Shown: positions 2,015 through 62,624 of the stretch, in pieces
Layout: the number at the start of each line of letters is the position of its first letter
Numbering within the stretch: the first letter of the stretch is position 1
Source: Eledone cirrhosa
Lineage: Eukaryota
Assembly: GCA_964016885.1 (NCBI GenBank)
Contig: OZ024742.1
Coordinates: 108,624,001-108,688,000 of the forward strand
DNA length: 64,000 nucleotides
Direction: 5' to 3'
Made by a program: the position numbers and the translations under genes
Notes under the pieces: model-generated
Seen by the model: the letters and a program-made list of their open reading frames with translations, nothing else
What the model was told of the DNA's origin: nothing
Database searches by the model: none

Positions 2015-2720
2015 TGGTTCATCTGAATCATTGAGCGCTTGCCACACATCTCGGAAGTTGTTTTTCGTTAATTCCTAAGCCGAAATACGATTCTCGCTAA
2101 TTTATATTTGTATTAATCTCCAGAGTCTAGCTATTGACCAGTTAATTTTCTTGATTTTTTTAGTTGATTCTATTGACTGATGAATAGCTTATGTTAACTT
2201 ATAACCATTCTGTTGAGAGCTTAATTCGTTTTGTGATGTTTTGCATTCTTGCAATAATATACACATACTGAATTCATCCGCCTAAAATAAGGGTTGCCTC
2301 CCTTGCCGAGCCCCACGTGGGGTCGGTAACGGTCATTCCTTAAATTAGCACTCGAACTAAAACCTGTTGAAAAAGTGCCTTTCTTGTTCAATCATCTTAC
2401 CAGAAGCCTAACATTATTTGTGTAAGCGGACAGTACTTGATTTAGGAGTCGCAGAAACCCAAATGCTGGATTTTACCAACCATCCAGGGTTCCGGGTTAA
2501 TTTTTTCAATCACATATATTTTTATTTGTTTGACCCGAATTACTTGGTCGTTCTTATGACTGTGCGGATGATTGTTTAACCATCGTCTCAGTGTGTTTGG
2601 CATTTAACCTATGTTGTAGCTCTGGTTCATCTGAATGATTGAGCGCTTGCCACACATCTCGGAAGTTGGTTTTCGTTAATTCCTAAGCCGAAATACAATT
2701 CTCGCTAATTTATATTTGTA
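2015..2720 (+). mobile_element. PLE-type pseudo-LTR partial tandem between (TA)n tracts
   Basis: About 95-bp direct repeat (tggttcatctgaat..tatttgtat) at ~2015-2112 and ~2622-2720; contains the bulged 3' hairpin; (TA)n on both sides. Confidence 0.6.
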
Positions 2721-2789
2721 TATATATATATATATATATATATATATATATATATATATATATATATATATATAAAATAAGTAAGTCAA

Positions 2790-3507
2790 ACATGTCTATA
2801 TTACTGTCATGTCTTTGTCTGGCAACATAGAAATTAAAATAATATCTAAGTATACAAATAACTCAACAGGTAAACAAATCAGAGAAGCAACTGAGATAGA
2901 ACTAAGAAAACCAAAGTTAAACAGAAAGAACGAATGGAATAACAACAACAACCATACCCAAACAAACAATACTGACCGAAGGGAAATATAAATAAATAAA
3001 TATATACACAAGTACAATAACAACAAACACATATAAACACACACTAATGAACAAAGATAGAATACAAAGACAAAAACAGATACACTCAAATACGAACACA
3101 AATAACAAACATTAAACACACACGCAAACGCATGCGCAAACAGAGACAGAGACAAGAAGAAATAAATAAATAAATAAAATAAAAATGGCGTAGGCATTAC
3201 AATACAACGGGAGGAAAAATGATAGTATCACTGATGATGTCACAGATGTGTGACAAAAGAACTTTGATAGACTATATATACAATTTATATCTGTATTTTT
3301 AATCATTGGTCAATCAATGATAAACATTGATTGCCAGATAAATTAAATATGGAGATATAAAAGACACAGAAGTGAAAACCAACCCAAACCAAACAGTGAG
3401 TGCGTTCTGTTATTATTTCTGGCAATATTATAACAATATGACCCTCCCCAAGTATAACAATATTTGTTTTGACACACTATTTCATATCATAACCTTGCAA
3501 AACAAAT
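2790..3507 (+). mobile_element. Penelope-like element 3' fragment (GIY-YIG C-terminus plus pLTR)
   Basis: NIEIKIISKY..QIREATEIELRKPKLNRKNEW is homologous to the 47021 and 61837 ORFs; degenerate hammerhead at 3226; ends in (TA)n. Confidence 0.8.
3226..3269 (+). ncRNA. Degenerate minimal type I hammerhead ribozyme
   Basis: tatca-CTGATGA-tgtcaca/tgtgac-AAAA(G12>A)-gaac-TT-tgata; stem I covaries with the 47484 and 61586 copies. Confidence 0.6.
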
Positions 3508-3593
3508 ATATATATATATATATATATATATATATATATATATATATATATATATATATATATATATATATATATATATATATATATATATAT

Positions 3594-3975
3594 ATCACAT
3601 AAGAAACGGAGGGTCAGTGTTGCGACGAATACAATTTATTAGACATATTACAATCGTTTCTCTGGCGACCAACTCGAGGCACGATCGATGTAATGATCGA
3701 ACCTGACTCGAAATTGCAAGGTCCTCAGATACGTCTCGATTCTACGAAGCAGAGTTTCCAAATGTCCAGTTACACCCGCGGCCCTCACTGGGCAGCTTAT
3801 ATCGATCGTGCCTCGAGTTGGTCGCCAGAGAAACGATTGTAACATGTCTAATAAATTGTATTCGTCGCAACACTGATTCTCCGTTTCTTATGTGATATCA
3901 TACTCTGCTCTGTAAGGGCATCGAGTGCTCAAACGGCCTACCGCTTACGTACGCTTTAAGCATCCAACACCAATT
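3594..3975 (+). mobile_element. Fold-back PLE pLTR fragment (about 96-bp inverted arms)
   Basis: Arms ~3594-3689 and ~3801-3897; contains hammerhead 3' half GAAAC-gatt-GTA and the bulged hairpin at 3902-3926; flanked by (TA)n. Confidence 0.75.
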
Positions 3976-4755
3976 ATATATATATATATATATATATATA
4001 TATATATATATATATATATATATATATATATATATATATATATATATATGTATACATATGTAAATATACATATATACACATATACAAATACATATACACA
4101 TTCATATACATACTTATATATATATACATATACATATATATCAATATATGCTTTTATACATATTCATGAATATATACATACATATATACACACACACACA
4201 TATATATATATATATATATATATATACACTAGGTTTATCACCTTTTGACTTTTGTAGAATTGATTTCCTGTATCATAATTCGATGAAGTAAAGTTCATCG
4301 ATTTATAAGTCAGGAACAGAGGGTTACAAAAACGTCATAACCTTAATATACACATATATATATACATATACACACACATATATATACATATATATATATA
4401 CACATATATATATATATATATATATATATATATATATATATATATATATATATATATATATATATATATATATATATATATATATATATACATATATATA
4501 TACATTTACATATACATTCAAACATACATATATTGAATTGAATTAGTAACTTCGCCGCATATACTAACATATACGCATATACTAACATATACGCCGCATA
4601 TACTAACTACAGAAAATATCATGAAATCACTAATTCAATTCCATGTTCAAATTCCACAGCTGGCTTCTAATCTCGTAATGTTTACATACCCACCACACAG
4701 ATGCACATACACACACACACACAGACATATATATATATATATATATATATATATA

Positions 4756-5392
4756 TGCTCGGATCTATTCATTGGAATCTTTGAGCTTATTCTACGGTGG
4801 ATATTGCGCATGTCTCGGACATGACTCCCTTAATTTAATTTAATTTAATTTATTTATATATATATAAATATATATATAAATATATATATAAATATATATA
4901 TATATGTATATATGTATATATATATATATATATATATATATATATATGTATATGTATATGTATATAACCAAAATTAAATTAAGGGTATCATGTCTGAGAG
5001 ACAAGTGCCATACATCTGTAGAATATGCTCAAAAATTCCAATGAATAGATCCGAGCATTTATATAAACTTGAAATCGATTGAAATATATATATATATATA
5101 TATATATATATATATATATATATATATATATAAAATAAACATATGAAACAATCACAGGGGATAATTTGTAAAGAGTGTAAGCACACACAGCTTGGTAGGT
5201 AACTAATTAAATTTAATTAGAACTTCAAATAAAGATGCCTTTTAAAATGATTAATCTCTTTTGTATATATTTCATTAAATAAAGAAATATATTTCACCAT
5301 CAATCGGTAAATCACAGAAGTCAAATCCCGGATCGTCAGTAAGCTGTGTGTGATTACACTCTTTACAAATTATCCCCTGTGATTGTTTCATA
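4756..5392. repeat. Two inverted-repeat pairs among (TA)n tracts, probably PLE pLTR remnants
   Basis: 4756-4840 is inverted versus 4972-5058; 5143-5193 is inverted versus 5341-5392. Confidence 0.65.
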
Positions 5393-60631: not shown

Positions 60632-60705
60632 TTGCCTTCTCCGATGAACGAATGAGGACGTTTTTTGTATTCGTCTTATTCGGGAAACCTCTGGTAATGA
60701 GGTAA
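60632..60705 (+). ncRNA. Type I hammerhead-like motif (CCGATGA core variant) in a PLE pLTR
   Basis: ttgccttct-CCGATGA-acgaatgaggacg/cgtcttattcgg-GAAAcc-tct-gGTA-atgaggtaa; bulged hairpin near 60739. Confidence 0.65.
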
Positions 60706-61168
60706 TTATATTGTATTGTTTATTATACATTAAATTTAGCTCTGGTACTTACATAGAGCACTCTTCACTCCTATGACCTTTTCAATTTTCAATGGAAACT
60801 TCAATACTTATATATATATATATATACATATATATATATATATATATATATATATATATATATATATATATATATATATATATATATATATATATATAAA
60901 TGGAATAGAATGAAACGAAATTTCATTTCTCACTCTTAGTACGGCAGTTACTTAAATGTAAGTATGTATGCATGTATACGTACATACATATATGTATACA
61001 GACGTACTAAGAGTGAGAATGAAATTTCATTTCATTCTGTTCCATTTGTCGTTTTCGGTGCGCCCGGCCGACTAAACTCACTCGATATGCAAATTAGGCT
61101 TTTCAGCCGTTAATATACATAAGGAAAGTATATACTTTCAGACGTTCAACCATCTGGCAGGAAGGTAT

Positions 61169-61211
61169 ACGATGCTGACGATAGCTAATAAGCTTGAAAC
61201 TAGTACATCGT
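61169..61211 (+). ncRNA. Minimal type I hammerhead ribozyme
   Basis: acgatg-CTGACGA-tagct/agctt-GAAA-ctag-TA-catcgt; compensatory stem I change versus 58071. Confidence 0.85.
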
Positions 61212-61417
61212 TCCTGTGTCAGTGTTGAACAAAAAGGTGACGTGGTTGCCTAAACACTGTACGGCGTAATTCGGGCTGTTTGTTTGTTTACAAACAAACA
61301 AACCGAGCATTATAATAAATGTTCGGTAAAACGATACGTGCATATATATATGTGTGTACATATATACATACTTATACTTACATTTATATATATATATACA
61401 TATATACATATATATAT

Positions 61418-62137
61418 ATTGTTATACTTTGGGAGGGTCATGTTGCCAATAAGAAACACACGCACCAGTTGCTTTCACTTCAATTTATTATATATTTATA
61501 AATTTATAAATTTACAAATCTACAAACTTATAAATTTCTGGTTGGTTGGTTGGTTGGTTCCACAACCAGATAGTTGTTTATATATAGTCATAGTCCTTTC
61601 GTCACACACTCTGTGACCTCTTCAGTGACTGGGGATTCCTTTCTTTGTTTCTGTGCCTTTCCTTTCTTCTGTCCTACGCCATTTTGTATCTGTGTGTGTT
61701 GTGTGCTCAGTTTGCGCATGCGCCACATCCGGGTGTCTGTGTGTGTTTGTGTTCATTTATCTATTTGTTTATTTATTTATTTATTTATTGTTGGTTGGTT
61801 GTTTGTTCTATGTGTGTGTGTGTTTTCATTTTGTCCTTAATTGTAAGTTGTGATGTTGCTGTTCCACTCATATTTTCTATTTAATTTTGGTTGTAATTCT
61901 TTTATGCTTACTGCCTCTGTAATTTGCCTAAACATTGCATCTTTTCTGTGTGTGGATTCTATTTTTATTTCTATGTTCTCTAATTTACCCCTATGTTCTA
62001 TGTTAGCATGTTGGTAGAGCACAGATGATTCTTTATTATCTTGAAGGTCTCGCAACATGACCCTCCCAAAGTATAACAATATCGGTTTCAACACACGATT
62101 TCAGATAAAGAATCTTGCTAAACAAATTCAGAAACGA
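61418..62137 (-). mobile_element. Penelope-like 3' fragment with inverted 5' pLTR piece
   Basis: ESSVLYQHANIEH..FRQITEA..LNRKYEW; 62052-62082 is inverted versus 61418-61446. Confidence 0.85.
61586..61630 (-). ncRNA. Minimal type I hammerhead ribozyme
   Basis: agtca-CTGAAGA-ggtcaca/tgtgac-GAAA-ggac-TA-tgact. Confidence 0.78.
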
Positions 62138-62624
62138 CTATATATATATATATATATATATATATATATATATATATATATATATATATATATATATATA
62201 TATATAAAACGAAGGAAATGTGGTAAGGAACCAGATGGACCATAACGCACCAGAGTACTCAATACTTAGGGTAGTAGAGTGGGTAATAGGAAAACGTATG
62301 GCCCCGACGGCAGAGCTCAAGCCGTTTCAACGACTATTTCAGCCGTTGAAACGGCTTGGGCTCTGCCGTCGGGGTCATACTTTTTCCTATATATATATAT
62401 ATATATATATATATATATATATATATATATATATATATATATATATATATATAAAGTATATATATATATATATATATATATATATAAAGTATATATATAC
62501 GTATATGTGTGATTTTGTCGCTATTGCTTTATGAGTGTGGATGTGTGTGTGAATTCAATTTTGTTTTTTGTTTTAATTTCTGTCTTTATTGTGATATTTA
62601 CATTTTCTACTCTTGTCATATACT

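Follow-up and report, generated by a model that had tools for sequence, protein, structure and literature searches.

Hydra-clade Penelope-like elements (PLEs), telomerase-related retroelements of marine animals, carry a short bulged hairpin, in many cases twice, and each hairpin probably positions one reverse transcriptase (RT), with priming from one cut strand at UA-rich microhomology. On the broader reading, which we hold with slightly more belief than doubt, these elements integrate by programmed twin priming, in which two RTs on two hairpins extend one (TA)n break in concert. A hairpin with its UA template would then be a minimal, duplicated counterpart of telomerase RNA, and would explain the tail and the inverted pLTR of PLEs generally.

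The consensus of the motif is RCTC-Y..R-TH-GAGY, and RCT/ACT then follows on the 3' side. The first-pass annotation had given the left arm as RYTC. The arm is mostly RCTC, rarely GTTC or TCTC; RYTC covers RCTC and GTTC but is too loose, for in held-out DNA (TA)4 lies 3' of 34 of 41 ACTC and 15 of 19 GCTC matches, and of only 4 of 27 ATTC and 2 of 9 GTTC matches. The basal stem, the 2-nt 3' bulge and the upper stem that it described are present at the quoted sites, but a single Y-R pair can suffice as the upper stem. Counted without demanding pairing, the pair above the bulge is C-G in 48 cases, T-A in 20 and a mismatch in 1 (18 C-G and 17 T-A among first copies only), numbers whose statistics are optimistic because the instances are related by kinship. 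This pair covaries. In the basal stem the proposed compensatory change is seen in a few families, to which covariation is limited, but the stem is nearly invariant in the metagenome set; its variants have A-U, G-C or U-A as pair 1 and C-G or U-A as pair 2. Wobble pairs (10 G-U versus 7 C-A) do not tell the folding strand apart. Loops range in length between about 3 and 60 nt, a variation that favours a folded strand over a duplex site. Rfam models gave only low-complexity or chance matches among the 150 listed of 162 matches in the window, and likewise in five full pLTR loci, where no known family was found. A covariance model built from short-loop metagenome instances alone gave 11 matches in the window, 9 of them real hairpins, and missed those with long loops.

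The window is the whole stretch of 64,000 nucleotides analysed. All 12 places cited in it by the first-pass annotation carry the motif, with blemishes at some: the one cited at 51383 is 51382-51406, the one cited at 58389 is 58391-58414 with a decayed left arm (AATC), and at 2619, 51382 and 60739 only one or two upper pairs stack directly on the bulge. Copies absent from that annotation lie at 7936, 35538, 45485, 48366, 55994, 56648 and 58971, as do further decayed copies at 26662 and 58802 and a variant at 4757/5027. The features are as follows.

2619..2644, plus strand: hairpin 1, GCTC/GAGC, TT bulge, interrupted upper stem; (TA)n 74 nt 3'
3902..3926, plus strand: hairpin 1, ACTC/GAGT, TC bulge
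3595-3974: inverted insertion holding hairpin 3902..3926; short end at -7, long end at +73
4757..4786, plus strand: variant hairpin with G-T above the bulge; inverted partner 5027-5056, minus strand
7936..7981, plus strand: hairpin 1 of family F3, whose read-through copies elsewhere have hairpin 2 and a Hydra-type ORF start
23664..23723, minus strand: hairpin 1 of F11 with a long insert; other copies end 10 nt 5'
24564..24926, plus strand: PLE ORF remnant just before the endonuclease; relatives have a Hydra-type CxCx5C linker and GIY-YIG
26662..26727, plus strand: decayed hairpin 1, CCTC left arm, (TA)n 91 nt 3'; it presumably belongs 3' of ORF remnant 24564..24926, plus strand
26985..27004, minus strand: hairpin 1 of F1, in inverted insertion 26885-27343 with a long and a short end
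35538..35561, plus strand: hairpin 1
42386..42404, minus strand: hairpin 1 of F2, about 43 nt 3' of hammerhead core 42448-42470, minus strand
45485..45508, minus strand: hairpin 1 of F4, GTTC/GAAC variant; the inverted arm has its short end 8 nt 5' of the hairpin
45703..45721, minus strand: hairpin 1 of F2, in inverted insertion 45658-45856 with a long and a short end
48272..48287, minus strand: hairpin 2 of F5 in a read-through copy, a TCTC/GAGA variant with a TA bulge and a single C-G pair; F5 long ends stop about 10 nt 5' of it
48366..48396, minus strand: hairpin 1 of F5, read-through copy
48683..48713, plus strand: hairpin 1 of F5, GTTC/GAAC
47935-48782: F5 inverted insertion holding hairpin 48683..48713; short end at -6, long end at +100
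51382..51406, minus strand: hairpin 1, in inverted insertion 51328-51628 with a long and a short end
55332..55367, minus strand: hairpin 1 of F6; tandem copies 55994-56029 and 56648-56683
58391..58414, minus strand: decayed hairpin 1 of F0, in inverted insertion 58342-58532 with a long and a short end
58802..58826, plus strand: decayed hairpin 1 of F10, in inverted insertion 58617-58878 with a short and a long end
58971..58995, minus strand: hairpin 1
60739..60759, plus strand: hairpin 1, best match to the metagenome-only model (E about 1.6e-6, a rough value)
62257..62280, minus strand: hairpin 1 of F0, in inverted insertion 62206-62387; long end at +74, short end at -8

The position of the motif shortly 5' of (TA)n and 3' of the hammerhead, noted earlier, is borne out. 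On the sense strand it precedes (TA)n in 11 of 74 flanks in the window and in 37 of 673 in the held-out set (97 stretches of 10 kb from the same genome, with satellite stretch L060 left out), against means of 0.3 and 2.3 in dinucleotide-shuffled flanks and only 2 (of 74) and 10 (of 673) antisense flanks. Seen from the matches, (TA)4 occurs within 150 nt 3' of 15 of 19 in the window (base rate 870 of 4640 positions) and within 120 nt 3' of 55 of 96 in the held-out DNA (base rate 2572 of 21555). T-first bulges of other lengths gave 14 of 64 for 1 nt, 7 of 53 for 3 nt and 15 of 71 for 4 nt. Chance or a low-complexity artefact is ruled out by the held-out DNA, the shuffles and the strand and bulge-length controls.

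Carriers traced to an ORF, which are those of F0, F1, F3, F17 and F31, are Hydra-clade PLEs as assigned by motifs (N-terminal and RT motifs only for F3 and F31), in agreement with the original attribution to PLEs. A single ORF with RT plus GIY-YIG at its C terminus is present at loci L159, L160, L161, L169 and L291. Both the F1 and the F17 ORF have the CxCx5C linker before the endonuclease, as do 83 of the 85 long homologues; by eye CCHH is absent from the ORFs. RWK-like and DKT motifs both occur in L291, L300, L169 and L161, whereas L032 shows RW alone. The best structural match of a modelled Hydra-type protein is TERT; a homodimer prediction for residues 1-480 scored 0.00, which weighs neither way. 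Hammerhead cores, variant in some families, are placed between the end of the ORF and hairpin 1; Rfam models miss those of the pLTR. Insertion at (TA)n and tandem and inverted pLTR structure with a tail are present, the tandems being 3.5 kb. An origin from SINEs or LINEs was rejected, since the five traced families lead to PLE-type ORFs. As a general PLE feature the motif also fails: it was found in 0 of 17 regions of the single Neptune-like family examined, though that family has two ends. By eye, the Naiad and Chlamys consensus files gave four nine-mer matches, none with a left arm before it, in files where line breaks can hide matches. Among six new Hydra consensus sequences in the portion covered of Craig et al. 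2021 (PMC8557442), the motif is visible by eye in three, namely coral Hydra-2_Amil and the sea cucumber sequences Hydra-1_Ajap (twice) and Hydra-2_Ajap.

The order on the sense strand is ORF end, hammerhead, hairpin 1, hairpin 2 and ATG. The hammerhead stands about 45-70 nt from hairpin 1 (more in some families of this genome), the two hairpins are 55-90 nt apart (up to about 180 in some families here), and hairpin 2 is about 20-90 nt from the ATG. The motif first described, taken there for a 3' hairpin inside the end, is the first of two copies and not the RNA's 3'-terminal structure. Hairpin 2 was predicted first; in F0, F1, F3, F5, F17 and F31 it was then located, 6-10 nt beyond the long end. 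Read-through patterns had 433 matches for F0 and 456 for F3, most but not all of those listed being true read-throughs, and reversed patterns had 0. A search in F2 gave 9 matches; three were inspected, which turned out to be TA-ended copies or duplications of the tail, and a true hairpin 2 was not found. Among 29 clusters of metagenome relatives, 23 carry the motif ahead of the ORF, and in 17 clusters there are two copies at a spacing of 55-83 nt, with 0 in antisense; of the 6 clusters with no strict match, three look 5'-truncated and three carry variants. Cluster L235 has one hairpin only.

Junctions with (TA)n form two clusters when the first TA base is taken as the point of reference: short ends lie 3-11 nt 5' of hairpin 1, and long ends 6-10 nt 5' of hairpin 2. 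Since copies end at either place, the known PLE tail corresponds to the interval between the two. Of the 18 multi-copy families tabulated from this genome, 16 have one junction or more at 3-11 nt 5' of hairpin 1, in most cases as the main short-end class; F13 and F26 have none there, and F2 has an additional class at -17. The hammerhead core stands 42 to about 166 nt from hairpin 1 in the eight families measured. Because this distance varies while the hairpin offset stays at 3-11 nt, it is the hairpin, not the ribozyme, that the ends track; control of the ends by the hammerhead was rejected on this ground, and also because F0 arms about 55 nt long extend past the predicted cut site. In contigs of run X1, which may be the source sample, loose ends of the TA type fall at two positions separated by 80 nt. 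With microhomology assigned to the element, these positions are 5 and 3 nt from the two F0 hairpins. In other organisms, five element clusters have junctions at -7, -8, -8, -10 and -11, two of them at hairpin 2.

A possible sequence of events is as follows. The element protein would cut both (TA)n strands, and each 3'-OH would pair with the UA-rich sequence immediately 5' of one hairpin. With one RT molecule at each hairpin, the same uncleaved RNA would be copied twice towards the hammerhead, and the two cDNAs, after stopping early, would be joined back to back. Hairpin 2 would normally remain uncopied, hairpin 1 would be copied only from the long start, and the tail would be the stretch between the two starts. 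What is recognised may be the folded sense RNA (helix, 2-nt bulge and 3' ACU), probably by the N-terminal domain of the TERT-like RT. The suggestion that the motif is a cis signal for the PLE protein is supported by its sense-strand position 3' of the hammerhead, by the covarying pairs and by the way its position fixes element ends. For its second half, 3' end formation, setting the start of reverse transcription fits better, as ends lie 5' of each hairpin copy.

It is unlikely, though the first alternative to weigh, that the hairpins are RNA processing or termination signals, with RNA ending just 5' of each and ordinary target-primed reverse transcription following. Junction positions fit this equally well, and the motif resembles a small nuclease or protein site. 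However, 62 of 64 inverted pairs from 12 families are head-to-head insertions with one long and one short end, so that two different RNAs would have to be paired each time. In addition, the anole PLE starts internally, and 3' extensions leave the product size unchanged, according to the portion covered of PMC11167929.

Less likely still is that priming takes place at the long end alone, the short end being a fold-back or second-strand stop or trimming at hairpin 1; in a self-priming version the template is possibly antisense (PMC3846280). Near-perfect palindromes make up 36 of 55 analysable inverted pairs (7 of 62 were not analysable), and self-priming was earlier proposed for such palindromes. 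But among 19 asymmetric pairs there are 12 whose short-ended arm exceeds its partner in length, an outcome that cannot arise by fold-back of the long arm, and short-ended arms can carry ORFs. The short site also ends 80 of 138 unpaired arms, and the same offset and microhomology are found at both hairpins.

Action of the motif in DNA, extruded or single-stranded, as a donor-copy endonuclease or promoter site with the nearby ends a by-product, seems very improbable. Plasmid cleavage by the Penelope endonuclease of Drosophila virilis required the tail, according to the summary in the part of PMC11167929 covered, and wobble pairs are no proof of RNA; however, variable loop length excludes a fixed duplex site, and the long-ended insertions examined lack hairpin 2 although it predicts where they end, pointing to template rather than product. 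Hardly credible is that UA-rich microhomology with (TA)n alone sets the ends and that the hairpins, adjoining UA-rich linkers, serve translation or RNA stability: the start codon is close to hairpin 2 and TAT/ATA sits at junction sites, at -11..-3 in 54 of 66 hairpins, but the next two upstream windows also hold it (24 and 15 of 66) and, in spite of many very AT-rich UTRs, the ends of 16 families are confined to about 8 nt.

The proposed programmed twin priming has relatives among known systems. In L1 twin priming, both cut strands prime and head-to-head inversions joined by microhomology result, the second start being set by chance homology; in Hydra-clade PLEs, by contrast, the two starts are fixed and each has its own hairpin next to it. 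Telomerase template-boundary stems, hepadnavirus epsilon and stringent LINE 3' stem-loops are short, often bulged helices bound by RT that fix where copying starts or stops. The PLE helix differs from these in lying 3' of the first copied base, in being present twice and in having no Rfam match.

The anole element Poseidon_Ac (Frangieh et al. 2024, PMC11167929, portion covered) initiates reverse transcription internally at two sites matching the tail ends, cuts and extends both strands, and can dispense with the hammerhead. It needs RNA to +172 though one start is at +111-118; as in the Hydra model, two starts bound the tail and sequence 3' of the start is required. It is of another clade, and its binding element has been narrowed no further than to the ORF's first 172 nt; this in vitro support for priming, from the Poseidon and not the Hydra clade, may apply here by analogy. 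The main-text portion covered does not describe a conserved, duplicated motif. The Hydra clade of Craig et al. 2021 (PMC8557442, portion covered) shares with the present elements the single ORF, RW[KR], DKT, CxCx5C, C-terminal GIY-YIG, hammerhead and (TA)n targets. There, the tail is ascribed to endonuclease-mediated resolution, the word hairpin is absent from the main text and the twin motif is unnamed. In agreement with the first-pass annotation, no description of the motif appeared in Rfam or in the literature searched.

The current work yields an element of about 20 nt that is conserved across this genome, those of a coral and a sea cucumber, and about 40 element clusters from metagenomes, together with its fixed offset to the start site and the rule of one hairpin per end. 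With the motif, the boundaries of Hydra-clade elements, an abundant group in this genome, can be marked without an alignment, and RNA-programmed insertion tools might make use of it. PLEs are the sister group of telomerase RTs, and the motif bears on how they select start sites and form the tail and the inverted copy.

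The bulged hairpin is a real, conserved cis motif. It was present at all 12 places quoted in the first-pass annotation, some copies being decayed. Of the 19 descriptor matches in the window, 15 had a TA run within 150 nt 3' (base rate 19%). Because circular testing was to be avoided, 98 stretches of 10 kb, chosen arbitrarily from this 3.0-Gb genome, served as held-out material, one satellite stretch being excluded; 55 of the 96 matches there had a TA run within 120 nt 3' (base 11.9%). ACTC and GCTC arms were the source of this held-out signal (49/60), and at bulge lengths other than 2 nt the association was close to background. 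Flanks of 200 nt were also read in the direction of the TA runs. The sense strand carried the refined motif RCTC-Y..R-TH-GAGY in 11 of the 74 flanks from the window and in 37 of the 673 from the held-out stretches (dinucleotide shuffles, 0.3 and 2.3); the antisense strand carried it in 2 and 10. The 118 candidates formed 42 sequence clusters, chance singletons among them.

The stem shows covariation. The pair above the bulge, scored by 3'-half anchoring with pairing there not required, was C-G or T-A in 68 of 69 distinct instances from 41 clusters (48 C-G, 20 T-A, 1 mismatch), and successive further pairs were formed in 44/65, 35/43 and 22/34. First copies had 18 C-G and 17 T-A; second copies were almost exclusively C-G. 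When 67 of the 69 instances were aligned, 94% of cells were paired (slid registers, 21-56%), and two-sided changes occurred in 57 cells versus a shuffle mean of 21. The basal stem is almost invariant in the metagenome set and variable among E. cirrhosa families; the bulge is TT, TC or TA, and ACT follows the stem. A covariance model built from foreign (metagenome) instances only gave 11 window matches, 9 of them real hairpins. Rfam models gave no match to the hairpin among the matches listed for the window or in five full pLTR (repeated terminal unit) loci. In metagenome instances, GAGC and the following ACTC/GCTC are almost self-complementary, which gives the 3' arm a second sequence to pair with, possibly a switch or dimer contact.

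The carriers had been called Penelope-like elements (PLEs), and tracing, limited to five hairpin sequence families (F0, F1, F3, F17, F31), led to ORFs with Hydra-type motifs. By sequence, these ORF marks are those of the Hydra clade in the accessible text of Craig et al. (2021, PMC8557442), which describes insertion of this clade in (TA)n. A metagenome search with an alignment of 45 homologues, from 120 listed, returned 78 loci in 69 clusters. The twin count was restricted to the 29 clusters whose sequence extends 700 nt or more 5' of the match: 23 carried the motif and 17 carried it twice, spaced 55-83 nt; antisense gave 0, and shuffles 0.2 and 0.0. Of the six clusters without it, three were apparently truncated and three had variants, one being TCTC/GAGA twice. 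Three of six published new Hydra consensus sequences (coral and sea cucumber) carry the motif by eye.

Several related families were observed. A young Hydra-type family (L173-L202; 97-99% protein identity among 150 copies listed) has a long 3' UTR with expanding T-rich microsatellites. F0 tandem arrays of period ~3.54 kb (L291; L292, G000:C1:91476610-91487306; G000:C1:437200304-437210966), their ORF start open, are candidate intact, recently active Hydra-clade PLEs. The F5 unit (window 47935-48782; L162:3250-3800) runs hammerhead, hairpin 1, hairpin 2, ~170 nt without evident ORF, and hammerhead again, the cores lying 457 nt apart in L162; it is likely non-autonomous and retrozyme-like, with both hairpins retained. 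A Neptune-like PLE family (window 46804-47640, 61425-62053; L001-L030) has a C-x4-CxxC linker and GIY-YIG; the RCTC motif was present in 0/17 of its regions, despite a hammerhead and two ends. These ends lie ~60 nt apart, and just beyond each the sequence starts TATC, which could pair with a GATA further on and may be an analogue specific to that clade. Also in the window are an L1/Tx1-like non-LTR element in two tandem copies 93% identical (9016-12726, 14927-18278; endonuclease, RT, zf-RVT, (AAT)n at 3' ends) and a 190-nt SINE-like repeat (174-367, 53164-53358, 62618-62811), found inside other elements too.

Self-comparison of head-to-head insertions showed one arm ending immediately ahead of the hairpin. 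Multi-copy families show two kinds of (TA)n junction: one precedes the hairpin by 3-11 nt, as in 16 of the 18 families tabulated, and the other lies ~20-105 nt 3' of it. Hammerhead-to-hairpin distance ranges from 42 to ~166 nt between families; element ends therefore track the hairpin. A second hairpin past the long end, predicted from the metagenome twins, was then found in read-through copies, 6-10 nt beyond that end in F0, F1, F3, F5, F17 and F31; searching found no F2 read-through copy.

Window 48272-48287: hairpin 2 in a read-through copy

Two F0 junctions lie 80 nt apart in contigs from a public run, and junction offsets are -7 to -11 in five clusters from other organisms, two additional rows, TA-run artefacts, being left out of the count. 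F2 shows tail-only tandem duplications (units 62 and 83 nt; L293, L297), as re-priming or template jumps between two start sites would yield them.

Of 64 inverted insertions with classifiable ends, 62, from 12 families, combined a long end with a short one, including 8/8 in the window; three further pairs had an intermediate end and stand outside the 64. Among 62 pairs analysed in more detail, 36 were near-palindromes, the short-ended arm was longer in 12 and the long-ended in 5; 2 were undecided and 7 not analysable. In many F0 copies the inverted arm measures ~55 nt and the inversion falls within the hammerhead region (e.g. L122, L066, L102, L115), which suggests RT stalling or joining at structure there. 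One inverted family that is abundant (window 50780-50964, 57663-58227, 61014-61338) has a hammerhead-like core and (TA)n ends but no strict motif match.

The elements, their tail and two-site initiation are already known. The twin bulged hairpin and the one-per-end rule were found neither by literature searches nor in the accessible text of PMC8557442, PMC11167929, PMC4209133, bioRxiv 10.64898/2026.07.22.740005, PMC3846280 and PMC5737381.

Layout, covariation, two fixed offsets and the long-plus-short rule are observed. In the mechanism we propose as the likely one, each hairpin would hold one RT, a cut (TA)n strand would pair with UA-rich bases 5' of the hairpin and prime there, and two priming events on a single RNA would account for both inverted copy and tail. 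TAT/ATA microhomology lies at -11..-3 of 54/66 hairpins. RT-positioning stems of telomerase, hepadnaviruses and LINEs are putative analogues. Among structures, the modelled Hydra-type protein (pLDDT 92) was matched best, though weakly, by Tetrahymena TERT (E 4e-9, TM 0.34).

Other readings address the same ends. That the hairpins are signals for RNA 3' end formation is unlikely. Fold-back, stopping at hairpin 1, is less likely still; self-priming was already proposed in the accessible text of PMC3846280. Action of the motif as a DNA-level site is very improbable, and ends from microhomology alone are scarcely credible.

The reading with one RT per hairpin is compatible, by analogy only, with findings on an anole PLE of another clade. 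According to the accessible text of Frangieh et al. (2024, PMC11167929), its two internal starts coincide with the tail ends, both strands are extended, RNA ~55-60 nt past a start site is required and hammerhead cleavage is dispensable.
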